Origin: a virus
Taxonomy: Duplodnaviria > Heunggongvirae > Uroviricota > Caudoviricetes
Strand: one strand, 5' to 3'
Length of the DNA stretch: 24,073 bases
IMG/VR virus record: IMGVR_UViG_2681813321_000026
Location: 1-24,073 of that record
Positions within the stretch are counted from its first letter, which is position 1; the number at the start of each line of letters is the position of its first letter. Below, piece by piece: positions 5,521 to 20,618 of this stretch. The notes under the pieces were generated by a model. The model saw only the letters and a program-made list of their open reading frames with translations, searched no databases and was not told the DNA's origin. A program made the translations under genes and the position numbers.

Positions 5521-5793
5521 TGTGCAGCTCCCGTGCTGATGAGATAATAATTTTGTGATGTGGTTTTCATGGATTCCCCCTCACATGGCTGGTGGCCTCC
5601 CCAAAGGCTGCCAGCCTCCCTTCTGATTCAGCTCCTCTGAAAAATCACTCTTCCAGGAAGAACCCTTTTCGTTTCTCAGCGCCTGAGCGCTTTGTACTAC
5701 CTTGCTGATACGGGCGTTTTTTTAAATTGCGCCCTTAAGACAGTGATCTACTTAACCAATGGATCTCTCCTGTTGGAAAAGACCCTATTCCTG

Positions 5794-5836
5794 CCCCAAC
5801 ACCCAATCCCCCCTTACCCCCCTTACCCTCTTCCCC
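5794..5836 (-). other. C-rich (plus) / G-rich (minus) tract with six runs of 3-6 G: potential G-quadruplex motif on the minus strand
   Basis: Plus strand ccccaacacccaatccccccttaccccccttaccctcttcccc; includes tandem ccccccTTA units. Lies in the 413-bp non-coding gap between the 102-aa ORF and the helicase gene. Confidence 0.4.
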
Positions 5837-5933
5837 ATAAAAACGTACTACTTCCCTAGTACACATGAGGAGTTGGGTCAGTTGGTTGCCAACCTGAACA
5901 GGCACCTTTAAGCCTGCTTCTGTTCGGGTACCT

Positions 5934-6242
5934 TTAAACCCGAAACAGTGAGGAGCGCGATTGCGATCCAGCCAGGGGAGGTTCGGCTGTATACCCCTGT
6001 AAAGCTCTGCCCTGATTTCTTACAAACAGGCGGAGCCTTGTGTTTGCTTCGTGCCTTGCTCTGTTCTCCTTGCGGAATGAAACAGGCTCAGCGTCAAAAG
6101 TGATTTCGTATACCTCCGCATATTTCAGGGCAACCTTCCGTCTCAGTGACGGAGGCAGCCCCTGTAACTGCTGCTGAATCCACTCTTCGTCTGCCTGGCA
6201 GTACCTAGATGGCATCTCTGTCTGAACGTAATTCTGGGACAT
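5934..6242 (-). CDS. Hypothetical protein (102 aa) in the cII/replication-initiator position
   Basis: ATG at 6242 with strong SD (GGGAGGTGA); overlaps the 3' end of the cro-like gene by 38 nt in another frame. No motif recognised. Confidence 0.55.
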   Translation of the reverse strand: MSQNYVQTEMPSRYCQADEEWIQQQLQGLPPSLRRKVALKYAEVYEITFDAEPVSFRKENRARHEANTRLRLFVRNQGRALQGYTAEPPLAGSQSRSSLFRV

Positions 6243-6492
6243 ACAAGCCCTTCACCTCCCCCGTGCGCGCTAAGCTTGGATGTGGAAAAAGCTCTGATAG
6301 GTCTGGCCGAAATTCATACGCTTGGATCTTTCCGTCGACAGCTGCAACCAATAACGGCACAAATTCTGGTGAAATCTTGTTCTTGCAGTTCAACCAATCG
6401 CAGACTGTTGACTGGGCCTTTCCGCATCGCTTGGCTAAGGCTTGCTGACTTCCAAGAATCTCAATAGCTTTCTCTATGGCTTTATGTTTCAT
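6205..6492 (-). CDS. Cro-like HTH regulator (Cro/CI-type, YdaS-like), 95 aa
   Basis: Start set to ATG at 6492 (MKHKAIEKAIEILGSQQALAKRCGKAQSTVCDW, HTH) with SD AGGAGA 7 nt upstream; ORF track start at 6543 is an upstream in-frame extension. Divergent from cI. Confidence 0.75.
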   Translation of the reverse strand: MKHKAIEKAIEILGSQQALAKRCGKAQSTVCDWLNCKNKISPEFVPLLVAAVDGKIQAYEFRPDLSELFPHPSLARTGEVKGLYVPELRSDRDAI

Positions 6493-6493
6493 A

Positions 6494-6578
6494 ATCGCAT
6501 CTCCTATTGAACGCATAATAACAACAGGAAAAGCGATATTCAACGTTAAACATAGAATATTTATCGGAAAGCCGATAA
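6494..6578. promoter_or_regulatory. OR-like divergent promoter/operator region between cro-like and cI genes
   Basis: Palindromic 14-mers ATCGCatctCCtAT (6494-6507) and ATCGGaaagCCGAT (6563-6576). Candidate minus-strand cro promoter TTGAAT-N17-TATTAT (-35 at 6543..6538, -10 at 6520..6515). Candidate plus-strand -10 TAGAAT at 6553-6558 with poor -35 (PRM-like). Confidence 0.5.
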
Positions 6579-6611
6579 ACTAGCCAAGATAGAGAGGGGA
6601 GGAAAATCGCA

Positions 6612-7304
6612 ATGACATTTTCAGAACGACTTGATTTAGCTATGCGCAACGCAAAATTTACGCAAGGTAGGCTGGCCAAAGAAGTGGGTATGGCTCAGTC
6701 CAGTGTTAATCAACTACTTAACAAAGCCAACGGTTCCAGAAAAACAGTCGAAATAGCAAAAGTTTTGGGCGTTAACCCGGAATGGCTCGCATCGGGTGTT
6801 GGCCCAATGGAAATCGTGACCTCTGCAGACTCACACCAAATACGTAACATTTCTGAAGATTGGGTTACTGATTCGTATGTCGTGGATGTTTTAGACATCA
6901 GATATAGTTGCGGACCTGGTAGTTATAACTCTGATTTTCCTGATATTGTCAGATCTATAGCGATAGAACCAGGATACGCATCAAGAGTTTTTGGCGGCAG
7001 ACCAGCATCAGCAATCAAAGCAATAAACGCCCACGGCGACAGTATGAAAGGCACAATAGACCCTGAAGACTTGGTATTTGTAGATGTATCAGTTCGCACA
7101 TTTAATGGTGATGGTATATACGCCTTTACATACTCTGGAACATCGCACATCAAAAGACTTCAAAAAATCAAAGATACTCTAACGGTGATATCTGACAACC
7201 CAGCTTACAAGGATTGGGCTATCGAACCGGAAGACTTCGAACAACTTCACATTGACGGAAAAGTAATTGTCAGTTGGCCTATGACACTACACCGTTTTGC
7301 ATAA
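6612..7304 (+). CDS. cI: CI-type prophage repressor (N-terminal XRE HTH, C-terminal S24 LexA-like peptidase domain)
   Basis: 230 aa; HTH QGRLAKEVGMAQSSVNQL; S24 catalytic motifs GDSM and downstream Lys; SD GGAGG upstream of ATG. Confidence 0.9.
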   Translation: MTFSERLDLAMRNAKFTQGRLAKEVGMAQSSVNQLLNKANGSRKTVEIAKVLGVNPEWLASGVGPMEIVTSADSHQIRNISEDWVTDSYVVDVLDIRYSCGPGSYNSDFPDIVRSIAIEPGYASRVFGGRPASAIKAINAHGDSMKGTIDPEDLVFVDVSVRTFNGDGIYAFTYSGTSHIKRLQKIKDTLTVISDNPAYKDWAIEPEDFEQLHIDGKVIVSWPMTLHRFA

Positions 7305-7322
7305 GCAAAAATCATTTAACCC

Positions 7323-7348
7323 GCCCACTCTTAAGTGGGCTTTTTTTT
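7323..7348 (+). terminator. Rho-independent terminator after cI
   Basis: Perfect 7-bp stem gcccact/agtgggc with 4-nt loop ctta followed by T8. Confidence 0.8.
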
Positions 7349-7356
7349 GGGAAAAA

Positions 7357-7398
7357 ATCGATAAACCGATTGACAGGTGAAATCGGTAAACCTATTAT
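7357..7398 (+). promoter_or_regulatory. PL-like promoter with two operator sites
   Basis: TTGACA (7370-7375), 17-nt spacer, TATTAT (7393-7398). Operator-like 14-mers ATCGAtaaaCCGAT (7357-7370, overlapping -35) and ATCGGtaaaCCtAT (7382-7395, overlapping spacer/-10), same family as the OR sites. Confidence 0.7.
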
Positions 7399-7447
7399 CT
7401 TGACATAGGTATCGAACTCACCAAAGCAATTATAGAGGATGAGAAAA

Positions 7448-7858
7448 ATGTCATCGTATATGGGATTACCAACAAATCAGCACGATGCTCTTGAGAATAT
7501 TCAGCTCTTAGTAGGGACTGGTGCACTACTGTATAGCAGCAATAACCCTGAGTTAATTGAACTTGCCAGCTCCATCCTGGCTGTAACTCAAAAATATAGC
7601 CTCACCGCGTCACGTTTATGCAAACAAAATTTAGCTATTAATTCCCAGAATCGGATTCGCACCCAACGCGAAACCTGCGGCTTAACAACCGCCGAACTCG
7701 CTAGGCTGCTCGATCTCGATGAAGAAATTATCATCCAGTGGGAGAGCGGAGAGTACGAACCAACCATCAGCATGCTTATCCCTCTGGCTAATGTTCTTGG
7801 CTGTGATCCAATGTTGTTATTGACTGATGCTTATAAACAAAATCAGGAGGAAGCATAA
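7448..7858 (+). CDS. Hypothetical protein with C-terminal XRE-family HTH (first gene of PL operon)
   Basis: Start set to ATG 7448 (SD GAGGA 8 nt upstream); track start 7439 has no spacing to the SD. C-terminal HTH LTTAELARLLDLDEEIIIQWESGEYEPTISMLIPLANVLG. Confidence 0.6.
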   Translation: MSSYMGLPTNQHDALENIQLLVGTGALLYSSNNPELIELASSILAVTQKYSLTASRLCKQNLAINSQNRIRTQRETCGLTTAELARLLDLDEEIIIQWESGEYEPTISMLIPLANVLGCDPMLLLTDAYKQNQEEA

Positions 7859-7859
7859 G

Positions 7860-8051
7860 ATGAAAATGTTCAAAGGCCTTACCAACGAACCGGAGACAAC
7901 TTTTCATCACATTGCCGTACTGCTTGAAGCGGGGTTAATCATTTCGGCTTCCGGTGATGAAGAATGTGATGAACTTTCGGATGATATCTTTTTACTGGCA
8001 CAACAATACGCCAGAAGCGCATGCGATGCATTTAAGGAGCAAAGAACATGA
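7860..8051 (+). CDS. Small acidic hypothetical protein (63 aa)
   Basis: ATG 7860 preceded by AGGAGG (9-nt spacing); track ORF 7827 is an in-frame upstream extension overlapping the previous gene. Confidence 0.55.
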   Translation: MKMFKGLTNEPETTFHHIAVLLEAGLIISASGDEECDELSDDIFLLAQQYARSACDAFKEQRT

Positions 8052-8239
8052 AAACTCCATTAAATATTCTTGAGGAAGTGGCAGCACAAATAAAAGAGAA
8101 TACATCAATGCTTGAATTTATATTTAAGAATTCGCCCGACTCAGGAGAGACAGACGATTATTTATGTTGCCTCATTCGCTCCATGAATAAAACCTGTGAA
8201 ATGGCTTACGCGTATATCGACACACTGCGCAACGAATAA
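8048..8239 (+). CDS. Small acidic hypothetical protein (63 aa)
   Basis: ATG overlaps stop of previous gene (ATGA coupling). Confidence 0.55.
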   Translation: MKTPLNILEEVAAQIKENTSMLEFIFKNSPDSGETDDYLCCLIRSMNKTCEMAYAYIDTLRNE

Positions 8240-8423
8240 AGAAAACTCAATAAACAATCACCCATAAAAACATAACGGTCTCTGGTCGGGAATTTCCACA
8301 ACCTGAAAATGGTGGTGATGCATGAAAAACAGAAGTGCTTATAAAACCGCATTATTAATGGCTAATGCAGGATACTGGTCAGTTGCAATACTGTTTCTCA
8401 GGAAAGCATACGGGAAATAACAA

Positions 8424-8783
8424 ATGACACATGAACCCATTAATACATATCGTCGCCGTATAGCTGTTGCGGCACTCCATCGAATAAAACGTAAAACAGG
8501 TGGTAATCTGCTTATTGTTGACCTTCCTGATGGGAACATTACGACCATAGAAATAACTGAACAGTTTATAAACCAGTTGCTGTTACGCTTCGAAGGTATT
8601 ACCCGTGGTGAATTGGGCCGGGTGGAGGGTGAAACCGAAATCCACACTGCATACCAGAATGCTATCGGGATTAATCAACATACTGAATACCTGACTGAAA
8701 CCGGAAAGTTAATTATAGACAACCTTTTTCAAGAGATTATTGATTACGCGAAAGAAAAATATATCAGCGGAGGAATTAACTGA
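8424..8783 (+). CDS. Hypothetical protein (119 aa)
   Basis: ORF with ATG start; stop overlaps start of next gene. No motif recognised. Confidence 0.5.
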   Translation: MTHEPINTYRRRIAVAALHRIKRKTGGNLLIVDLPDGNITTIEITEQFINQLLLRFEGITRGELGRVEGETEIHTAYQNAIGINQHTEYLTETGKLIIDNLFQEIIDYAKEKYISGGIN

Positions 8784-8998
8784 TGGCTAATTTATCCCCT
8801 GTATCTGTTGTGCACGAAAAAGTGCAGATCGTTATGACAATTGAAAATGGCCAAGTCACAGGTGTCTGCAAAGTCCGCGATGGCGAGCTGATTGCCAGCA
8901 TGGATACATTCATACGGCTGGCAGAAAGAGCGGGGTATCAGATAACAGCACCTGCTCAGGAGGAAACCGGTGGCATTAACAGCAACACGCATTCCTGA
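8783..8998 (+). CDS. Hypothetical protein (71 aa)
   Basis: ATG 8783 with GGAGGA 8 nt upstream, overlapping stop of previous gene. Confidence 0.55.
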   Translation: MANLSPVSVVHEKVQIVMTIENGQVTGVCKVRDGELIASMDTFIRLAERAGYQITAPAQEETGGINSNTHS

Positions 8999-9184
8999 GC
9001 GGATCCACCGGCAGGCATTGCAGGTCCTGTTGTTGTACCGATGCCGACGGATATTTCCGCATCGGATACAGCGCACCGGATATCTCAGTCTGAAGGTTAA
9101 CCGTCGCTGGCGGCTGTTATCGAAAGACGACGGCCGGAACTGGGAAGTAATGAGTCATGAACGTTATTCGGGAGAAATAAAGAA

Positions 9185-9577
9185 ATGATCGACAACCGCA
9201 CCGCCAGCACCATTGACCAGGCATTACAGAAACATGATACACCCGTCGGCCCGTTATTTTTTGTAACACGCCACGGAAGAACAAAAAAATGCCTCACCCG
9301 AAAAACGGCAATTCGTTACCTGGCATTCTTTATGACCACCCGCGCTTTTGAACGTTCAGGATTCCGACAACGCTATCCTGACAAGCGTTTTATCTTCAAC
9401 AGGAATGAGATATGGAAACGTGGAGAATCAACCACAGAGTATACCCGCGCACACCAGCGAACAATCAGACGACTGCGCAGACTCATCGCCAGGAAACAGT
9501 ATACAGAAAAATGGTTCAGAAAATATGACACATGGAGCGCCGGATATTACGAACTGATGGCAACAAAACCATTCTGA
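9185..9577 (+). CDS. Hypothetical basic protein (130 aa, Arg/Lys-rich C-terminus)
   Basis: ATG 9185 with GGGAGA upstream. No motif recognised. Confidence 0.5.
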   Translation: MIDNRTASTIDQALQKHDTPVGPLFFVTRHGRTKKCLTRKTAIRYLAFFMTTRAFERSGFRQRYPDKRFIFNRNEIWKRGESTTEYTRAHQRTIRRLRRLIARKQYTEKWFRKYDTWSAGYYELMATKPF

Positions 9578-9637
9578 CGTAAACGAAATTAACCATGACG
9601 CAATTAAATAAGGCAAGCCGAATACATCAGGAGGACC

Positions 9638-9826
9638 ATGAACATTTATTTCAGAATAGTTATATCACTGGCAATTATCACATGTATTTACGGATTAATC
9701 GTTCCGGCCCTCATATCAATGAAGGATACGGTAGCAGTGATTTCTGGCTTTGCTCTGGCGTGTCTGACCCCGCCCTGCATTTATGCCATTTATAAGGGTC
9801 TTTCTTTTTCTAAGGATAAAAGATGA
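9638..9826 (+). CDS. Small membrane protein (62 aa, two predicted TM helices)
   Basis: AGGAGGA upstream of ATG; two hydrophobic stretches; stop overlaps start of SPFH gene (ATGA). Confidence 0.55.
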   Translation: MNIYFRIVISLAIITCIYGLIVPALISMKDTVAVISGFALACLTPPCIYAIYKGLSFSKDKR

Positions 9827-10137
9827 AAAAATTACTTTTTGCTTTAGCCCTTGTTCTGCCGACCATTGGCCTTGTCGGTTGCGATCGCGTTGAGCCTGGT
9901 AATGTGGGCATCAAAGTAAACAAACTGGGCGACGATAAAGGCGTCGGTGAAGTGGTCGGTGTTGGGCGCTACTGGACGGGATGGAACACTGAGGTTTACA
10001 TCTTCCCGACCTTTAAGCAGATGAAGACCTACGATGATCCATTCAGTTTCCAGATGAGTGACGGTACAACCATCGGCTATCACATCGGCGTGGCCTACAA
10101 AGTTGATCCATCCAAAGTTACCACAGTCTTTCAGACC

Positions 10138-10167
<30 letters not shown>
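9823..10167 (+). pseudogene. Truncated copy of SPFH/band-7 lipoprotein gene (first 105 codons, then unrelated sequence after repeat boundary at 10137)
   Basis: Identical to the first 105 codons of the 275-aa gene at 19791-20618, then diverges and terminates after 9 foreign codons. Confidence 0.75.
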
Positions 10168-13550
<3,383 letters not shown>

Positions 13551-13576
<26 letters not shown>

Positions 13577-14096
13577 TCAGCAACCCCGGTATCAGTTCAT
13601 CCAGCGCGGCTGCTTTGTTCATGGCTTTGATGATATCCCGTTTCAGGAAATCAACATGTCGGTTTTCCAGTTCCGGAAAACGCCGCTGCACCGACAGGGG
13701 GAGCCCGTCGAGAATACTGGCAATTTCACCTGCGATCCGCGACAACACGAAAGTACAGAATGCGGTTTCCACCACTTCAGCGGAGTCTCTGGCATTCTTC
13801 AGTTCCTGTGCGTCGGCCTGCGCACGCGTAAGTCGATGGCGTTCGTACTCAATAGTTCCTGGCTGGAGATCTGCCTCGCTGGCCTGCCGCAGTTCTTCAA
13901 CCTCCCGGCGCAGCTTTTCGTTCTCAATTTCAGCATCCCTTTCGGCATACCATTTTATGACGGCGGCAGAGTCATAAAGCACCTCATTACCCTTGCCACC
14001 GCCTCGCAGAACGGGCATTCCCTGTTCCTGCCAGTTCTGAATGGTACGGATACTCGCACCGAAAATGTCAGCCAGCTGCTTTTTGTTGACTTCCAT
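13551..14096 (-). CDS. nu1: Terminase small subunit (lambda Nu1, 181 aa)
   Basis: Translation MEVNKKQLADIFGASIRTIQNWQEQGMPVLRGGGKGNEVLYDSAAVIKWYAERDAE... recognised as lambda Nu1; overlaps A start as in lambda. Confidence 0.95.
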
Positions 14097-14283
14097 TGTT
14101 CATTCCACGGCCAAAAACAGAGAAAGGAAACGACAAAGGCCCAAAAGTTCGTTTTCAGCACCTGTCGTTTCCTTTCTTTTCAGGGGGTATTTTAAATAAA
14201 AACATTAAGTTACGACGAAGAAGAACGGAAACGCCTTAAACCGGAAAATTTTCATAAATAGCGAAAACCCGCGAGGTCGCCGC

Positions 14284-14295
14284 CCCGTAGCCTGC
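14284..14295 (-). other. cosN cohesive-end site (12-nt GGGCGGCGACCT on minus strand); cosB lies between here and Nu1
   Basis: Plus strand aggtcgccgccc at 14284-14295 is the reverse complement of the lambda left cohesive end; the following 190 bp toward Nu1 matches the lambda left end from memory with a few substitutions. Confidence 0.85.
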
Positions 14296-14522
14296 CGGAT
14301 CGCCGGAAAGGACCCAATAAATGATAATAATTATCATTTATATAAATACCATCACACATCCCACGTACACCATAAAACCACGACAAATAATCAATTTTGT
14401 CCAAGTCATGCATTAATTGATCTGTGTCAACTTAACGTAAAGACATCTTAAGACAATACAAATCAGCAGCACTGAACACGGAAAAACACAATGTCATCAA
14501 AAAATAAAGCTTCCCAAACCAG

Positions 14523-14663
14523 ATGATTAATCAAATCCATATTGCCCTTGAACGTAAGGGATCGGGTAATTTTTCGGCATGGGTTATTGAAGCCTGCAGG
14601 AGAAGGCTGGCAACAGATGCAAAGCACCTGCGCCCGGCCAGCATGAAAAATAACGAGAAATGA
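14523..14663 (+). CDS. Small hypothetical protein (46 aa) in the cos-proximal right-end region
   Basis: ORF MINQIHIALERKGSGNFSAWVIEACRRRL...; resembles from memory the last small ORF before cos in lambda. An upstream ATG at 14491 is out of frame. Below track size cutoff. Confidence 0.3.
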   Translation: MINQIHIALERKGSGNFSAWVIEACRRRLATDAKHLRPASMKNNEK

Positions 14664-14795
14664 ACGTTCGGTTACAGGAACCGGTAGCTACTGTCTTCTA
14701 ACAATATTTCATCTTCATATCCGGCGAAACAAGACTTTACCCTGCAGGGATGTACTGAATAGCAACAGAGTGATAATTAACTTCTGATAAAATAA

Positions 14796-15122
14796 TCAGG
14801 GTGCTGAAGGACTAAAGATAAATGTTTTCTTCACGCCTTTACGCGGCTTGTCCTTCTCAAATCGCCATTTTGCCATCGCCTTTACAACCTGCTCATCAAA
14901 CAGATGGTGCGGCTCTGAACGGATAAACTCAATTCGGGTGACAGTACCATCAGCACCAATATCAAACTTCACATCAACCCGTCCCTTTATATAATTTGCC
15001 GCGGCATAGGCCGGATATTGTGGTAATGCCTTAACCAACTGTCGAGGCATATCTGTTTTATGTTGCGTACAGCCCATAACCAAAGAAGACAACAAAATAA
15101 TTAACGGAAGATTTCTTTTCAT
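14796..15122 (-). CDS. Lipoprotein consisting of a TonB C-terminal-like domain (about 108 aa)
   Basis: Signal peptide MKRNLPLIILLSSLVMGC with lipobox-like VMGC; mature region PQYPAYAAANYIKGRVDVKFDIGADGTVTRIEFIRSEPHHLFDEQVVKAMAKWRFEKDKP aligns closely with E. coli TonB C-terminal domain (PQYPARAQALRIEGQVKVKFDV...AMRRWRYEPGKP) from memory. Alternative upstream ATG at 15137 has no SD. Confidence 0.75.
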   Translation of the reverse strand: MKRNLPLIILLSSLVMGCTQHKTDMPRQLVKALPQYPAYAAANYIKGRVDVKFDIGADGTVTRIEFIRSEPHHLFDEQVVKAMAKWRFEKDKPRKGVKKTFIFSPSAP

Positions 15123-15138
15123 TTTTATTCCCGGCATA

Positions 15139-15158
15139 GATAAGAATAAGTCTTATTC
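15139..15158. promoter_or_regulatory. AT-rich perfect palindrome (GAATAAG-T-CTTATTC preceded by GATAA) overlapping the putative promoter of the TonB-like gene
   Basis: 7-1-7 perfect inverted repeat at 15144-15158; overlaps a minus-strand TAGAAT -10-like hexamer; partial resemblance to Fur-box GATAAT hexamers. Confidence 0.3.
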
Positions 15159-15761
15159 TAACAATGCAGCCCTGTCGGTCATCAATCCTCTGCTTAATGG
15201 CAATGACAATTATCCGACTTAAATCACAAATCAGACACATGACATAACAGAGTTTGCGAGGTAACACATCGTCCGGTTTCTTCCACCATCGCACCGGACC
15301 AGCGACCATGAGGGGACAACGCCGCGCTCCGTTTACGCGGTAAACCCCGGTGTGTATCGTTTTTGATTATCCCCGCACACTCTCGCAGAGGAGTCTCCCT
15401 GTCGGGCTGCGGTCTCTGTTAATGCAGGAATACGGCGACAATACCGCGCATGGATAATAAGGTCGCTCAACACACTGGCTGTAATTCAGCGGATACCATT
15501 CGGCATTTATCAGTATTCATCACACACTCAACGGTGAATTCTTCATGCGTGGCATTCACTTCATATGTTCGTGAATAACATTCAGTGCATTTACCTCTGA
15601 ACACCTCTTCAATCACTCTTCCAGGAAGAACCCTTTTCGTTTCTCAGCGCCTGAGCGCTTTGTACTACCTTGCTGATACGGGCGTTTTTTTAAATTGCGC
15701 CCTTAAGACAGTGATCTACTTAACCAATGGATCTCTCCTGTTGGAAAAGACCCTATTCCTG

Positions 15762-15804
15762 CCCCAACACCCAATCCCCCCTTACCCCCCTTACCCTCTT
15801 CCCC
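15762..15804 (-). other. Second copy of the C-rich/G-rich potential G-quadruplex tract
   Basis: Identical to 5794-5836. Confidence 0.4.
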
Positions 15805-15901
15805 ATAAAAACGTACTACTTCCCTAGTACACATGAGGAGTTGGGTCAGTTGGTTGCCAACCTGAACAGGCACCTTTAAGCCTGCTTCTGTTCGGGTACC
15901 T

Positions 15902-16210
15902 TTAAACCCGAAACAGTGAGGAGCGCGATTGCGATCCAGCCAGGGGAGGTTCGGCTGTATACCCCTGTAAAGCTCTGCCCTGATTTCTTACAAACAGGCG
16001 GAGCCTTGTGTTTGCTTCGTGCCTTGCTCTGTTCTCCTTGCGGAATGAAACAGGCTCAGCGTCAAAAGTGATTTCGTATACCTCCGCATATTTCAGGGCA
16101 ACCTTCCGTCTCAGTGACGGAGGCAGCCCCTGTAACTGCTGCTGAATCCACTCTTCGTCTGCCTGGCAGTACCTAGATGGCATCTCTGTCTGAACGTAAT
16201 TCTGGGACAT
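15902..16210 (-). CDS. Hypothetical protein (102 aa), copy 2
   Basis: Identical to 5934-6242. Confidence 0.55.
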   Translation of the reverse strand: MSQNYVQTEMPSRYCQADEEWIQQQLQGLPPSLRRKVALKYAEVYEITFDAEPVSFRKENRARHEANTRLRLFVRNQGRALQGYTAEPPLAGSQSRSSLFRV

Positions 16211-16460
16211 ACAAGCCCTTCACCTCCCCCGTGCGCGCTAAGCTTGGATGTGGAAAAAGCTCTGATAGGTCTGGCCGAAATTCATACGCTTGGATCTTTC
16301 CGTCGACAGCTGCAACCAATAACGGCACAAATTCTGGTGAAATCTTGTTCTTGCAGTTCAACCAATCGCAGACTGTTGACTGGGCCTTTCCGCATCGCTT
16401 GGCTAAGGCTTGCTGACTTCCAAGAATCTCAATAGCTTTCTCTATGGCTTTATGTTTCAT
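16173..16460 (-). CDS. Cro-like HTH regulator, copy 2
   Basis: Identical to 6205-6492. Confidence 0.75.
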   Translation of the reverse strand: MKHKAIEKAIEILGSQQALAKRCGKAQSTVCDWLNCKNKISPEFVPLLVAAVDGKIQAYEFRPDLSELFPHPSLARTGEVKGLYVPELRSDRDAI

Positions 16461-16461
16461 A

Positions 16462-16546
16462 ATCGCATCTCCTATTGAACGCATAATAACAACAGGAAAA
16501 GCGATATTCAACGTTAAACATAGAATATTTATCGGAAAGCCGATAA
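16462..16546. promoter_or_regulatory. OR-like promoter/operator region, copy 2
   Basis: Identical to 6494-6578. Confidence 0.5.
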
Positions 16547-16579
16547 ACTAGCCAAGATAGAGAGGGGAGGAAAATCGCA

Positions 16580-17272
16580 ATGACATTTTCAGAACGACTT
16601 GATTTAGCTATGCGCAACGCAAAATTTACGCAAGGTAGGCTGGCCAAAGAAGTGGGTATGGCTCAGTCCAGTGTTAATCAACTACTTAACAAAGCCAACG
16701 GTTCCAGAAAAACAGTCGAAATAGCAAAAGTTTTGGGCGTTAACCCGGAATGGCTCGCATCGGGTGTTGGCCCAATGGAAATCGTGACCTCTGCAGACTC
16801 ACACCAAATACGTAACATTTCTGAAGATTGGGTTACTGATTCGTATGTCGTGGATGTTTTAGACATCAGATATAGTTGCGGACCTGGTAGTTATAACTCT
16901 GATTTTCCTGATATTGTCAGATCTATAGCGATAGAACCAGGATACGCATCAAGAGTTTTTGGCGGCAGACCAGCATCAGCAATCAAAGCAATAAACGCCC
17001 ACGGCGACAGTATGAAAGGCACAATAGACCCTGAAGACTTGGTATTTGTAGATGTATCAGTTCGCACATTTAATGGTGATGGTATATACGCCTTTACATA
17101 CTCTGGAACATCGCACATCAAAAGACTTCAAAAAATCAAAGATACTCTAACGGTGATATCTGACAACCCAGCTTACAAGGATTGGGCTATCGAACCGGAA
17201 GACTTCGAACAACTTCACATTGACGGAAAAGTAATTGTCAGTTGGCCTATGACACTACACCGTTTTGCATAA
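16580..17272 (+). CDS. cI: CI-type prophage repressor, copy 2
   Basis: Identical to 6612-7304. Confidence 0.9.
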   Translation: MTFSERLDLAMRNAKFTQGRLAKEVGMAQSSVNQLLNKANGSRKTVEIAKVLGVNPEWLASGVGPMEIVTSADSHQIRNISEDWVTDSYVVDVLDIRYSCGPGSYNSDFPDIVRSIAIEPGYASRVFGGRPASAIKAINAHGDSMKGTIDPEDLVFVDVSVRTFNGDGIYAFTYSGTSHIKRLQKIKDTLTVISDNPAYKDWAIEPEDFEQLHIDGKVIVSWPMTLHRFA

Positions 17273-17290
17273 GCAAAAATCATTTAACCC

Positions 17291-17316
17291 GCCCACTCTT
17301 AAGTGGGCTTTTTTTT
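17291..17316 (+). terminator. Rho-independent terminator after cI, copy 2
   Basis: Identical to 7323-7348. Confidence 0.8.
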
Positions 17317-17324
17317 GGGAAAAA

Positions 17325-17366
17325 ATCGATAAACCGATTGACAGGTGAAATCGGTAAACCTATTAT
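17325..17366 (+). promoter_or_regulatory. PL-like promoter with operators, copy 2
   Basis: Identical to 7357-7398. Confidence 0.7.
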
Positions 17367-17415
17367 CTTGACATAGGTATCGAACTCACCAAAGCAATTA
17401 TAGAGGATGAGAAAA

Positions 17416-17826
17416 ATGTCATCGTATATGGGATTACCAACAAATCAGCACGATGCTCTTGAGAATATTCAGCTCTTAGTAGGGACTGGTGCACTACTGT
17501 ATAGCAGCAATAACCCTGAGTTAATTGAACTTGCCAGCTCCATCCTGGCTGTAACTCAAAAATATAGCCTCACCGCGTCACGTTTATGCAAACAAAATTT
17601 AGCTATTAATTCCCAGAATCGGATTCGCACCCAACGCGAAACCTGCGGCTTAACAACCGCCGAACTCGCTAGGCTGCTCGATCTCGATGAAGAAATTATC
17701 ATCCAGTGGGAGAGCGGAGAGTACGAACCAACCATCAGCATGCTTATCCCTCTGGCTAATGTTCTTGGCTGTGATCCAATGTTGTTATTGACTGATGCTT
17801 ATAAACAAAATCAGGAGGAAGCATAA
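17416..17826 (+). CDS. Hypothetical protein with C-terminal XRE HTH, copy 2
   Basis: Identical to 7448-7858. Confidence 0.6.
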   Translation: MSSYMGLPTNQHDALENIQLLVGTGALLYSSNNPELIELASSILAVTQKYSLTASRLCKQNLAINSQNRIRTQRETCGLTTAELARLLDLDEEIIIQWESGEYEPTISMLIPLANVLGCDPMLLLTDAYKQNQEEA

Positions 17827-17827
17827 G

Positions 17828-18019
17828 ATGAAAATGTTCAAAGGCCTTACCAACGAACCGGAGACAACTTTTCATCACATTGCCGTACTGCTTGAAGCGG
17901 GGTTAATCATTTCGGCTTCCGGTGATGAAGAATGTGATGAACTTTCGGATGATATCTTTTTACTGGCACAACAATACGCCAGAAGCGCATGCGATGCATT
18001 TAAGGAGCAAAGAACATGA
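17828..18019 (+). CDS. Small acidic hypothetical protein (63 aa), copy 2
   Basis: Identical to 7860-8051. Confidence 0.55.
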   Translation: MKMFKGLTNEPETTFHHIAVLLEAGLIISASGDEECDELSDDIFLLAQQYARSACDAFKEQRT

Positions 18020-18207
18020 AAACTCCATTAAATATTCTTGAGGAAGTGGCAGCACAAATAAAAGAGAATACATCAATGCTTGAATTTATATTTAAGAATT
18101 CGCCCGACTCAGGAGAGACAGACGATTATTTATGTTGCCTCATTCGCTCCATGAATAAAACCTGTGAAATGGCTTACGCGTATATCGACACACTGCGCAA
18201 CGAATAA
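18016..18207 (+). CDS. Small acidic hypothetical protein (63 aa), copy 2
   Basis: Identical to 8048-8239. Confidence 0.55.
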   Translation: MKTPLNILEEVAAQIKENTSMLEFIFKNSPDSGETDDYLCCLIRSMNKTCEMAYAYIDTLRNE

Positions 18208-18391
18208 AGAAAACTCAATAAACAATCACCCATAAAAACATAACGGTCTCTGGTCGGGAATTTCCACAACCTGAAAATGGTGGTGATGCATGAAAAACAG
18301 AAGTGCTTATAAAACCGCATTATTAATGGCTAATGCAGGATACTGGTCAGTTGCAATACTGTTTCTCAGGAAAGCATACGGGAAATAACAA

Positions 18392-18751
18392 ATGACACAT
18401 GAACCCATTAATACATATCGTCGCCGTATAGCTGTTGCGGCACTCCATCGAATAAAACGTAAAACAGGTGGTAATCTGCTTATTGTTGACCTTCCTGATG
18501 GGAACATTACGACCATAGAAATAACTGAACAGTTTATAAACCAGTTGCTGTTACGCTTCGAAGGTATTACCCGTGGTGAATTGGGCCGGGTGGAGGGTGA
18601 AACCGAAATCCACACTGCATACCAGAATGCTATCGGGATTAATCAACATACTGAATACCTGACTGAAACCGGAAAGTTAATTATAGACAACCTTTTTCAA
18701 GAGATTATTGATTACGCGAAAGAAAAATATATCAGCGGAGGAATTAACTGA
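18392..18751 (+). CDS. Hypothetical protein (119 aa), copy 2
   Basis: Identical to 8424-8783. Confidence 0.5.
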   Translation: MTHEPINTYRRRIAVAALHRIKRKTGGNLLIVDLPDGNITTIEITEQFINQLLLRFEGITRGELGRVEGETEIHTAYQNAIGINQHTEYLTETGKLIIDNLFQEIIDYAKEKYISGGIN

Positions 18752-18966
18752 TGGCTAATTTATCCCCTGTATCTGTTGTGCACGAAAAAGTGCAGATCGT
18801 TATGACAATTGAAAATGGCCAAGTCACAGGTGTCTGCAAAGTCCGCGATGGCGAGCTGATTGCCAGCATGGATACATTCATACGGCTGGCAGAAAGAGCG
18901 GGGTATCAGATAACAGCACCTGCTCAGGAGGAAACCGGTGGCATTAACAGCAACACGCATTCCTGA
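18751..18966 (+). CDS. Hypothetical protein (71 aa), copy 2
   Basis: Identical to 8783-8998. Confidence 0.55.
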   Translation: MANLSPVSVVHEKVQIVMTIENGQVTGVCKVRDGELIASMDTFIRLAERAGYQITAPAQEETGGINSNTHS

Positions 18967-19152
18967 GCGGATCCACCGGCAGGCATTGCAGGTCCTGTTG
19001 TTGTACCGATGCCGACGGATATTTCCGCATCGGATACAGCGCACCGGATATCTCAGTCTGAAGGTTAACCGTCGCTGGCGGCTGTTATCGAAAGACGACG
19101 GCCGGAACTGGGAAGTAATGAGTCATGAACGTTATTCGGGAGAAATAAAGAA

Positions 19153-19545
19153 ATGATCGACAACCGCACCGCCAGCACCATTGACCAGGCATTACAGAAA
19201 CATGATACACCCGTCGGCCCGTTATTTTTTGTAACACGCCACGGAAGAACAAAAAAATGCCTCACCCGAAAAACGGCAATTCGTTACCTGGCATTCTTTA
19301 TGACCACCCGCGCTTTTGAACGTTCAGGATTCCGACAACGCTATCCTGACAAGCGTTTTATCTTCAACAGGAATGAGATATGGAAACGTGGAGAATCAAC
19401 CACAGAGTATACCCGCGCACACCAGCGAACAATCAGACGACTGCGCAGACTCATCGCCAGGAAACAGTATACAGAAAAATGGTTCAGAAAATATGACACA
19501 TGGAGCGCCGGATATTACGAACTGATGGCAACAAAACCATTCTGA
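19153..19545 (+). CDS. Hypothetical basic protein (130 aa), copy 2
   Basis: Identical to 9185-9577. Confidence 0.5.
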   Translation: MIDNRTASTIDQALQKHDTPVGPLFFVTRHGRTKKCLTRKTAIRYLAFFMTTRAFERSGFRQRYPDKRFIFNRNEIWKRGESTTEYTRAHQRTIRRLRRLIARKQYTEKWFRKYDTWSAGYYELMATKPF

Positions 19546-19605
19546 CGTAAACGAAATTAACCATGACGCAATTAAATAAGGCAAGCCGAATACATCAGGA
19601 GGACC

Positions 19606-19794
19606 ATGAACATTTATTTCAGAATAGTTATATCACTGGCAATTATCACATGTATTTACGGATTAATCGTTCCGGCCCTCATATCAATGAAGGATACGGT
19701 AGCAGTGATTTCTGGCTTTGCTCTGGCGTGTCTGACCCCGCCCTGCATTTATGCCATTTATAAGGGTCTTTCTTTTTCTAAGGATAAAAGATGA
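19606..19794 (+). CDS. Small two-TM membrane protein (62 aa), copy 2
   Basis: Identical to 9638-9826. Confidence 0.55.
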   Translation: MNIYFRIVISLAIITCIYGLIVPALISMKDTVAVISGFALACLTPPCIYAIYKGLSFSKDKR

Positions 19795-20618
19795 AAAAAT
19801 TACTTTTTGCTTTAGCCCTTGTTCTGCCGACCATTGGCCTTGTCGGTTGCGATCGCGTTGAGCCTGGTAATGTGGGCATCAAAGTAAACAAACTGGGCGA
19901 CGATAAAGGCGTCGGTGAAGTGGTCGGTGTTGGGCGCTACTGGACGGGATGGAACACTGAGGTTTACATCTTCCCGACCTTTAAGCAGATGAAGACCTAC
20001 GATGATCCATTCAGTTTCCAGATGAGTGACGGTACAACCATCGGCTATCACATCGGCGTGGCCTACAAAGTTGATCCATCCAAAGTTACCACAGTCTTTC
20101 AGACCTACCGCAAAGGCGTGGACGACATTACCGACACCGACCTGCGCCAGAAGATAGCCGACGCACTCAACCGACTGGCCAGCAAAATGACCACCGACAA
20201 ATTTATCGACGGCGGCAAGTCTGAGCTGCTGGATGCAGCTCTTAAAGACATTCAGGAAGAAATGACGCCCATCGGTATTCAGGTAATGAGCCTCTCATAT
20301 GTGGGTAAGCCGGAGTACCCACCTACTGTTATCGACAGCATTAATGCCAAAGTCACGGCGAACCAGAAAACCCTGCAACGCGAGCAGGAAGTAAAACAGC
20401 GCGAAGCGGAAGCCAACATGTTGCGCGCGGAAGCTGCCGGACAGGCAGATGCGATTCGCACAAAAGCCCAGGCCGAAGCCGATGCTATTCGTTTACGCGG
20501 TGAAGCTCTGCGCCAGAACCCCGGTGTTATGGAGCTGGAAGCCATCAACAAGTGGAACGGTACACTGCCGCAATACATGACCAGCGGTGCCAACACACCA
20601 TTTATTCAGGTTAAGTAA
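19791..20618 (+). CDS. SPFH/band-7 (HflC/stomatin-like) domain lipoprotein, 275 aa
   Basis: Lipoprotein signal MKKLLFALALVLPTIGLVGC (lipobox LVGC); SPFH-like core and C-terminal Ala/Glu/Gln/Arg-rich coiled-coil segment (REQEVKQREAEANMLRAEAAGQADAIRTKAQAEADAIRLRGEAL) typical of HflC/QmcA-type proteins; SD AAGGA upstream. Confidence 0.8.
   Translation: MKKLLFALALVLPTIGLVGCDRVEPGNVGIKVNKLGDDKGVGEVVGVGRYWTGWNTEVYIFPTFKQMKTYDDPFSFQMSDGTTIGYHIGVAYKVDPSKVTTVFQTYRKGVDDITDTDLRQKIADALNRLASKMTTDKFIDGGKSELLDAALKDIQEEMTPIGIQVMSLSYVGKPEYPPTVIDSINAKVTANQKTLQREQEVKQREAEANMLRAEAAGQADAIRTKAQAEADAIRLRGEALRQNPGVMELEAINKWNGTLPQYMTSGANTPFIQVK

Follow-up and report, generated by a model that had tools for sequence, protein, structure and literature searches.

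A five-gene early cassette of Escherichia coli lambdoid prophages that includes a ParE-like gene

Toxins of the RelE/ParE superfamily, among them RelE, YoeB, YafQ, HigB and ParE, are proteins of ∼85–105 aa built from two N-terminal helices and a sheet. In a type II module such a toxin adjoins a conserved partner, and the pair is preceded by its own autoregulated promoter. One prophage-borne system, PaaR2-PaaA2-ParE2, comes from cryptic prophages of Escherichia coli O157:H7 (structure 5czf), and its antitoxin PaaA2 is disordered. Lambda kil, Rac kilR and Qin dicB follow a different plan: these small genes on the pL side have no antitoxin and are harmless in the lysogen through the repression of their promoter. 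Regulators with a Phage_pRha or Bro-N N-terminus, some of which carry a small C-terminal domain, are the last group that bears on the locus described here.

The window analysed in this study, 24,073 nt of a Caudoviricetes genome (IMG/VR record IMGVR_UViG_2681813321_000026), holds five tightly packed early genes at 8240–9577, here called r32, r119, r71, r72 and r130. One of them, r72, is toxin-like by sequence and in its predicted model. It has 72 aa and one N-terminal helix where RelE, YoeB, YafQ, HigB and ParE have two, and it differs from the RelE/ParE type II toxins in that searches found neither a conserved antitoxin partner nor a promoter of its own. Compared with Pfam PF24732 (ParE_like) and the protein WP_001336513, r72 is a full-length member with no structural difference. 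Neither r71 nor r72 has a sequence relationship to PaaR2-PaaA2-ParE2; the cassette lacks a dedicated regulator gene or promoter, the pairing of r71 with r72 is not conserved, and r71 looks like a folded domain of the Rha/Bro-C type, whereas an antitoxin of the PaaA2 type is disordered. The comparison with kil, kilR and dicB is one of possible working only, based on the pL-like promoter and operator repeats that precede r72; the proteins differ in fold and target, Kil and DicB being directed at cell division. In the Phage_pRha/Bro-N regulators the domain is C-terminal, whereas r71 consists of the domain alone.

A preliminary description of this region listed a gap and a hairpin besides three genes without relatives. 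The corrected annotation replaces these with five coupled genes, of which the toxin-superfamily gene r72 is called only by some annotation runs and r32 is missed by standard pipelines. This is otherwise an ordinary phage accessory region, and r72 is uncharacterised; we do not regard the result as a surprise, but the correction is worth making and offers a reasonable starting point for experiments. The anatomical claims made below (gene structure, coupling signals, the pL-like position, the fold of r72, the conservation of r32 and the kinship of the r71 domain) are held with high confidence.

Setting and layout of the cassette

The window comes from a lambdoid prophage of E. coli, of which it covers the immunity and early region. 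Here a repressor gene of the LexA/cI type (6612–7304, plus strand) faces a cro-like gene, the minus strand carries replication genes (helicase, toprim), Q and lysis genes, and the plus-strand genes past cI run toward SPFH, ORF6N, xis and int. E. coli E110019 has the same layout in a single-copy region that is 99.8% identical. Directly 3′ of the repressor gene, an intrinsic-terminator-like hairpin with a T8 run (7323–7340, plus strand; 7-bp stem with five GC pairs, TTTTTTTT tail) appears to mark the end of the repressor transcript. Next comes a stretch (7357–7398, plus strand) in which a consensus scan and a repeat search located an early-left promoter of the pL type with operator-like repeats over it. 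The promoter is near-consensus (TTGACA-17-TATTAT at 7370–7398), and the repeat ATCGN6CGAT is exact over the −35 element (7357–7370) and has one mismatch over the −10 element (7382–7395). Exact matches to the repeat occur at only two sites in each copy of the direct repeat described below, at 7357 and in the cI/cro intergenic region (6563–6576). Since operator repeats lie both in the cI/cro region and over the pL-like promoter, we infer by analogy with lambda that 8240–9577 belongs to a repressor-controlled early-left operon.

The consensus scan, which a weak promoter could escape, found only two promoter-like sites in 7200–9900: the one at 7370–7398 and a 9/12 match at 8424–8453, which begins on the start codon of r119 and not before r71-r72 or r72-r130. 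It returned no promoter-like site in the gap upstream of r119 (8240–8423). Within this gap, 8240–8321 showed no structured RNA (fold z-score −0.15), and Rfam had no family anywhere in 8240–9577.

All five genes are encoded on the plus strand. The first, r32 (8322–8420), encodes a conserved small protein of 32 aa, and its stop lies 3 nt upstream of the ATG of r119 (8424–8783; 119 aa, phrog_1737), in the same frame. The junction between r119 and the acidic r71 (8783–8998; 71 aa, phrog_340) is a TGATG overlap, r71 shares 29 nt with the very basic r72 (8970–9188; 72 aa, GTG start, PF24732 ParE_like, phrog_1525), and r72 meets the basic r130 (9185–9577; 130 aa, phrog_1886) in an ATGA overlap. Because these junctions abut or overlap, the five genes read as a translationally coupled string. 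The Shine-Dalgarno sequence of r119 itself is weak, and this gene probably owes its translation to coupling with r32. The 119-, 71- and 130-aa ORFs had been located correctly before, as had the 32-aa ORF, with its sequence, and the minus-strand ORF that overlaps it.

The whole of 8240–9577 recurs identically at +9968. The second copy of the cassette, r32 to r130 (18290–19545, plus strand), is base-for-base identical and sits in a 4495-bp direct repeat (15611–20105); the repeat junctions at 10137/10138 and 15610/15611 had no match in 5426 complete E. coli genomes, and the duplication may be either a genuine rearrangement or an assembly error. The cassette is also widespread: prophages of the Fels-1, phi467, Fraca and Klebsiella types contain it, and all its genes there are labelled ‘hypothetical’. 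HMM comparison revealed no cross-family kinship among r119, r71, r72 and r130. No defence model of PADLOC-DB v2 was matched by any of the five proteins, r119 giving a chance-level match only (E 0.02). The suggestion that exclusion or defence functions may hide in this accessory stretch is borne out to the extent that it contains a gene of a toxin superfamily, r72, but not by any PADLOC match.

The small gene r32 and the ORF opposite it

The 32-aa ORF had been viewed as doubtful and as poorly served by its Shine-Dalgarno sequence. Its upstream site GGTGGTGAT (8311–8319, plus strand) matches 8 of the 9 letters of the extended Shine-Dalgarno sequence GGAGGTGAT, and 6 nt separate the core from the start as read from the sequence; this is a good site and not a poor one. 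Relatives of 32–38 aa share the C-terminal motif L[FY]L[RK]KAYG[KR]. When all fetched loci were scanned with a regular expression and an ORF search, ∼37 distinct peptides of 32–42 aa were obtained, together with one truncated call of 21 aa; their N-terminal halves are very divergent and the constant pattern is ...A[YH]KTA.L......G........L[FY]L[RK]KAYG[KR]. The ORF is present in 80/80 related viral loci, and also in Klebsiella phages, in Fraca (as an annotated CDS) and in Fels-1 (unannotated). In many E. coli relatives a mosaic breakpoint falls within r32 near 8394, and these encode a 37-aa form whose C-terminus is unchanged.

Variable sites are distributed over the three codon positions as 10/10/24 in the 32-aa class and 12/10/30 in the 35-aa class, and the NG86 dN/dS is 0.12–0.22; the counts are small, and the wobble positions are common to the antisense frame, which is itself excluded by stops. 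Against the Klebsiella copy pN is 0.25, with pS saturated. The motif and the dN/dS values argue that r32, far from being doubtful, is a conserved protein-coding gene under purifying selection.

The peptide had also been called hydrophobic. This holds for the variant in the window, but homologues have E, H and R in the segment in question, which makes a transmembrane r32 unlikely; on the same ground, a membrane peptide or a type I toxin was set aside. A helix-Gly-helix hairpin is the likely build. The gene may also serve translational coupling, and it is again tightly abutted in phages where another gene comes next. PGAP leaves r32 unannotated in E. coli and RefSeq omits it in Salmonella phage Fels-1, while some non-PGAP annotations list it as a hypothetical protein. 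Pfam, NCBIfam and PADLOC gave nothing above noise, and the only PHROG link is a weak one to phrog_2180 (function unknown).

The 102-aa antisense ORF (8339–8647, minus strand) is a shadow ORF in a frame that shares its wobble positions with r32 and r119. It is broken by in-frame stops in 11 of the 16 relatives examined, including L003 and L005, whose r119 is 72–74% identical, and in every relative examined with r119 below ∼70% identity. We rejected it as a gene because of these stops in most diverged relatives.

r72 and the hairpin inside it

The interval between the 71-aa and 130-aa genes had been taken for a gap. The overlooked r72 fills its 186 nt (8999–9184) and also takes in the final 29 nt of r71; it has its own Shine-Dalgarno site, AGGAGG (8958–8963, plus strand), inside the 3′ end of r71 and 6 nt before the GTG. 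The protein scores 62.7 bits against PF24732 (cut-off 24.4) over profile positions 2–65 of 67. This is its only Pfam match: no classical ParE_toxin, HigB or YoeB model was matched at E≤1, and NCBIfam had no match. In several complete E. coli genomes PGAP names the protein at the corresponding position ‘ParE family toxin-like protein’ (WP_001336513); in other genomes, or by some PGAP versions, it is labelled ‘hypothetical protein’. The family, a computational definition, is thus already covered by a Pfam model and named by PGAP. A literature search found no paper on PF24732 or on ‘ParE family toxin-like protein’, and one paper that came up for STM0898 was unrelated.

A word-index search returned 90 relatives of r72, all of them PF24732 members from Enterobacterales and nearly all 72–73 aa long. 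Pairwise dN/dS is 0.16–0.41, which implies that r72 is a maintained gene. The exact sequence is found on at least 1000 contigs, so any phenotype of r72 would concern many prophages of clinical E. coli, Klebsiella and Salmonella. Residues P9, W47, R48, G55, W58 and H63 are invariant, and R46, S51, Y66 and R32 are near-invariant, even when phage homologues of 36–40% identity are included.

In the predicted model, r72 consists of a first strand (residues 2–5), one helix (10–24), three further strands and a C-terminal helix, and it shows the characteristic alpha/beta fold of the RelE/ParE superfamily. The canonical architecture, two N-terminal helices and a sheet in ∼85–105 aa, is not reached in 72 aa. 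We consider the RelE/ParE-fold assignment sound, and r72 would, on this model, be a minimal member of the superfamily, one N-terminal helix short of the canonical build. When the r72 profile was compared with PDB sequences, only Asp-box repeats were hit (Ycf48, glycosidases) and no relatives. A structural Asp-box beta-hairpin, SxDxGxxW, would explain the conservation of S51, G55 and W58. As the hairpin accounts for these three residues, R46, R48, H63 and Y66 stand out as a candidate functional face; all four are kept, on the sheet and the next helix, across 36–88% identity.

The hairpin reported from this region, ccgatgc/gcatcgg, is real (stem 9038–9044/9059–9065), but its place is inside r72 and not intergenic. 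It occupies 9035–9069 (plus strand), corresponding to codons 23–33, and its 7-bp stem is extendable. The sequence in the window folds at −21.1 kcal/mol (z = −4.3 against shuffles), the stem is followed by ATACAGCGC without a U tract, and a consensus terminator scan found no terminator at 9035–9069. In 14 relatives the region has no folding advantage over shuffled sequences, apart from a weak one in three of them (z −1.9 to −2.2). In L013 and L034 the same peptide segment is encoded and one substituted base of the stem abolishes the hairpin (z ∼ −0.2). A terminator or regulatory element was rejected in view of the missing U tract and the unconserved pairing, and we treat the hairpin as a lineage-specific, incidental feature within the coding sequence.

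These results bear directly on the earlier picture, which comprised three orphan ORFs, a regulatory hairpin between genes, and a hydrophobic mini-ORF that is probably spurious and faces an antisense ORF. Every ORF named in it exists, as does the inverted repeat. Yet the ‘intergenic’ region is a conserved protein gene assigned with high confidence, the mini-ORF evolves under purifying selection, its antisense partner is broken in relatives, and the hairpin, which has no U tract, disappears in relatives that encode the same peptide. We judge this picture highly improbable.

Neighbours of r72 and its possible role

The larger ORFs had been described as devoid of recognisable motifs. For r71 and r130, scans of Pfam, NCBIfam and PADLOC gave nothing above noise, and searches of PDB sequences with profiles of their alignments found no relatives; r119, searched in the same four collections, had no match. 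All three are, on the other hand, members of PHROG families (phrog_1737, phrog_340 and phrog_1886 for r119, r71 and r130), the only families that profile searches matched and each of unknown function. The label ‘unassignable’ largely holds for r119, which is present in all cassette loci, and is partly relieved for the other two.

An exhaustive comparison of the r71 profile with 1.84 billion representatives yielded only 69 proteins. Five longer relatives have a Phage_pRha or Bro-N N-terminus and the r71 domain at the C-terminal end; the core of r71 (∼residues 14–56) aligns to the C-termini of P0295, P0311, P0315, P0317 and P0335. Several relatives are tandem duplications of the domain, some carry PF27490, and there is a partial match to positions 198–238 of phrog_4792, annotated ‘anti-repressor’. 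Judged by these alignments, r71 is a standalone version of a ∼45-aa domain that is also found C-terminally in Phage_pRha/Bro-N regulators. In Fels-1, which has no r72, r71 also lacks the conserved polar tail (..NSNT[HN]S), so the overlap with the r72 start probably dictates this tail.

An acidic protein encoded upstream of a basic RelE/ParE-fold protein would fit a classical type II pair, with r71 as antitoxin and r72 as toxin, serving prophage stabilisation or the abortion of superinfecting phages. The gene states tabulated for 115 fetched loci and 73 species-representative genomes speak against such a pair. r119, r71, r72 and r130 are all intact in 67 of the 115 loci. At seven loci r72 is intact beside a disrupted r71, and in six of these (L002–L004, L017, L018 and L024, three complete E. 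coli genomes included) the disruption is the same nonsense codon. In Fraca and ∼15 species r71 is absent, r72 is intact and r119 directly abuts it, whereas Fels-1 retains r71 and r130 without r72. Two further loci (L006 and L014) lack both r71 and r72 and contain r119 and an r130 with an N-terminal extension. Moreover, the r71 domain is a C-terminal domain of Rha/Bro-N proteins and probably not an antitoxin fold of a known kind such as RHH, HTH, AbrB or Phd/YefM, the consensus scan found no promoter before the pair, and PADLOC does not match it.

The wider family points the same way. Distant homologues of r72 (36–45% identity) sit in other gene contexts, among unrelated neighbours: 13 Serratia-type phage loci have the homologue immediately behind a ParB-like protein, 6 loci have it behind an Rv2179c-like 3′-5′ exoribonuclease and 11 behind a DUF2857 protein, while in Sortsne-like phages the homologue lies upstream of an acidic gene of ∼95 aa and a holin. 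These neighbours include no recognised antitoxin and none common to all groups.

The other candidate partner is r130. Its model has an alpha-beta-beta-beta-alpha unit (residues 4–58, of dsRBD-like topology), a beta-hairpin (67–78) and a basic helix of 43 residues (84–126). Comparison with dsRBD-like and HicB N-terminal-like alpha/beta modules gave noise-level scores for a query of 130 residues in which the long helix is dominant, and sequence searches lent no support to such a module; the dsRBD-like or HicB-like reading of this model is a lead, not an assignment. In a HigB/HigA-type pair, the N-terminal alpha/beta module of r130 would neutralise r72 and the long basic helix would bind an operator. 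r130 is absent from 8 of the 115 loci, and in L038 it is frameshifted beside an N-truncated r71 and an intact r72. We consider a pair of this type improbable, more so than one of r72 with r71, which is itself unlikely.

Either way, r71 or r130 can be lost with r72 intact, so the conserved adjoining partner of a type II toxin was not found, nor did the consensus scan find an autoregulated promoter before a pair. With neither of these defining features found, r72 does not present as part of a type II module. Almost all intact copies of r72 in the cassette group do adjoin an intact r71, an intact r130 or both, and at a single, anecdotal locus (L062) r71 and r72 are fused in frame; these two observations keep the toxin-antitoxin idea alive, at low probability.

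We tentatively favour r72 as an active toxin-like effector, a reading that we consider quite possible and that the conserved R46, W47, R48, H63 and Y66 would support: a RelE/ParE fold gated by the prophage repressor and expressed early, not half of an addiction module. If r72 is active, phages would be using the RelE/ParE fold in this repressor-gated way, which would bear on the recycling of toxin folds between defence and phage offence. The contexts of the family include lambdoid prophages, Sortsne-like phages and positions beside DUF2857 genes, the last presumably of a kind known from integrative conjugative elements. A broader version is rather doubtful. In it, r72 would represent a widespread, antitoxin-less ‘mini’ RelE/ParE-fold effector family of Enterobacterales mobile elements, controlled by the timing of transcription only, that would halt host translation or counter toxin-antitoxin or defence systems of the host early after induction or entry, and r32 would be a new small regulator heading the same cassette.

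Slightly less doubtful is that r72 is non-toxic, a degenerate RelE/ParE fold recruited by mobile elements as a nucleic-acid- or ribosome-binding regulator, or as a decoy against host toxin-antitoxin or defence systems, within a block of unrelated small early modulators. The short length and missing helix would fit such a protein, as would an Asp-box hairpin that accounts for S51, G55 and W58 on purely structural grounds. The family is likewise always without a recognisable antitoxin, whether in temperate phages, beside the lysis genes of Sortsne-like phages or next to DUF2857, and L038 keeps r72 intact with both neighbours damaged. The conservation of R46, R48, H63 and Y66 across the family argues against loss of activity, as an Arg/His/Tyr set of this kind is used by RelE-type RNases. 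The strongly basic charge of r72 fits binding to the ribosome or to RNA, toxic or not.

The 4495-bp direct repeat and the genes that follow the cassette

The two identical cassette copies, offset by 9968 nt, lie within a perfect direct repeat of 4495 bp (5643-10137 = 15611-20105), which contains cro, cI, the entire cassette and the 5' portion of an SPFH-domain gene. A lambda-like Nu1/terminase/truncated-portal segment on the minus strand (~10138-15610) separates the copies. In the first copy the SPFH gene, which begins at 9823, is broken off after ~105 codons and continues into portal sequence; a complete copy, together with the gene of a 62-aa protein, is found at 19606-20618. Queries across either junction (10137/10138 and 15610/15611) reached a coverage of ≥80% in no genome among the 5426 complete E. 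coli genomes searched; the order seen here must therefore be a rearrangement specific to this strain or an artefact of assembly.

The 62-aa protein (phrog_1130; 9638-9826) is a two-helix membrane protein, and its gene overlaps the start of the SPFH-domain gene by ATGA, which recalls NfeD-SPFH pairs. The same arrangement comes after the cassette in many relatives, and the two proteins could form a candidate exclusion-type module in their own right. The gammaproteobacterial sRNA STnc100 was matched at 921-1093 on the minus strand (108 bits, against an Rfam gathering score of 47); no other Rfam family was matched anywhere in the window.

Operator-like repeats

The operator-like inverted repeat ATCGN6CGAT is common to the cI/cro intergenic region (6563-6576) and the pL-like promoter (7357-7370 and 7382-7395), and the sites recur in the copies at +9968. 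When one mismatch or fewer was allowed, 23 matches were observed, compared to 10.3 expected; exact copies are confined to these two regions.

Variation within the cassette

The r32 and r119 genes share one reading frame and are separated only by TAA CAA (8418-8426), a 3-nt spacing retained in relatives with r119 directly downstream. Read-through of the r32 stop codon would yield an r32-r119 fusion protein. Salmonella phage Fels-1 (L115, NC_010391) carries the cassette without r72, and an unannotated 35-aa r32 homologue, MTFIKDQAAFKTAQLFHTSGYNIIAELFLRKAYGR, is encoded at 1716-1823, upstream of STM0898.4n.

An in-frame nonsense codon at E35 of r71 (equivalent to ~8885) is recurrent: three complete E. 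coli genomes and three viral contigs (L002-L004, L017, L018, and L024) carry it, and their r71 is split by it into halves of 32 aa each. r72 is identical in all six loci, and PGAP places no annotation over the interval of the split r71. In one viral contig (L062, 517-978), r71 and r72 are joined in frame to give 153 aa, while the two are separate in its close relative L061; the joined form is either natural and rare or the result of an indel error.

Near the N-terminus of r130, an Ala-Ser coding repeat (equivalent to ~9203-9215) differs in length between genomes: the window encodes TAST, and the two genomes L003 and L004 encode TASASASA(SA)INQ. This suggests a slippage-prone sequence. The gene also contains an A7 run (9283-9289). 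In one related locus (L038, 2716-3109) r130 is frameshifted immediately past the Lys codons equivalent to this run, and in another (L064) it is split farther downstream. These breaks could represent homopolymer sequencing errors or phase-variable inactivation.

Records assigned to hosts outside Enterobacterales

Homologues of r72 or of the cassette, with 36-80% identity, occur in records assigned to hosts outside Enterobacterales, namely Chryseobacterium sp. (L126), Vagococcus sp. (L179), and phage records from Elizabethkingia and Aeromonas. These records probably reflect contamination or wrongly assigned hosts. The Vagococcus locus agrees with L180, a locus from Salmonella, in the length of the upstream ORF, the offset, and the profile range.
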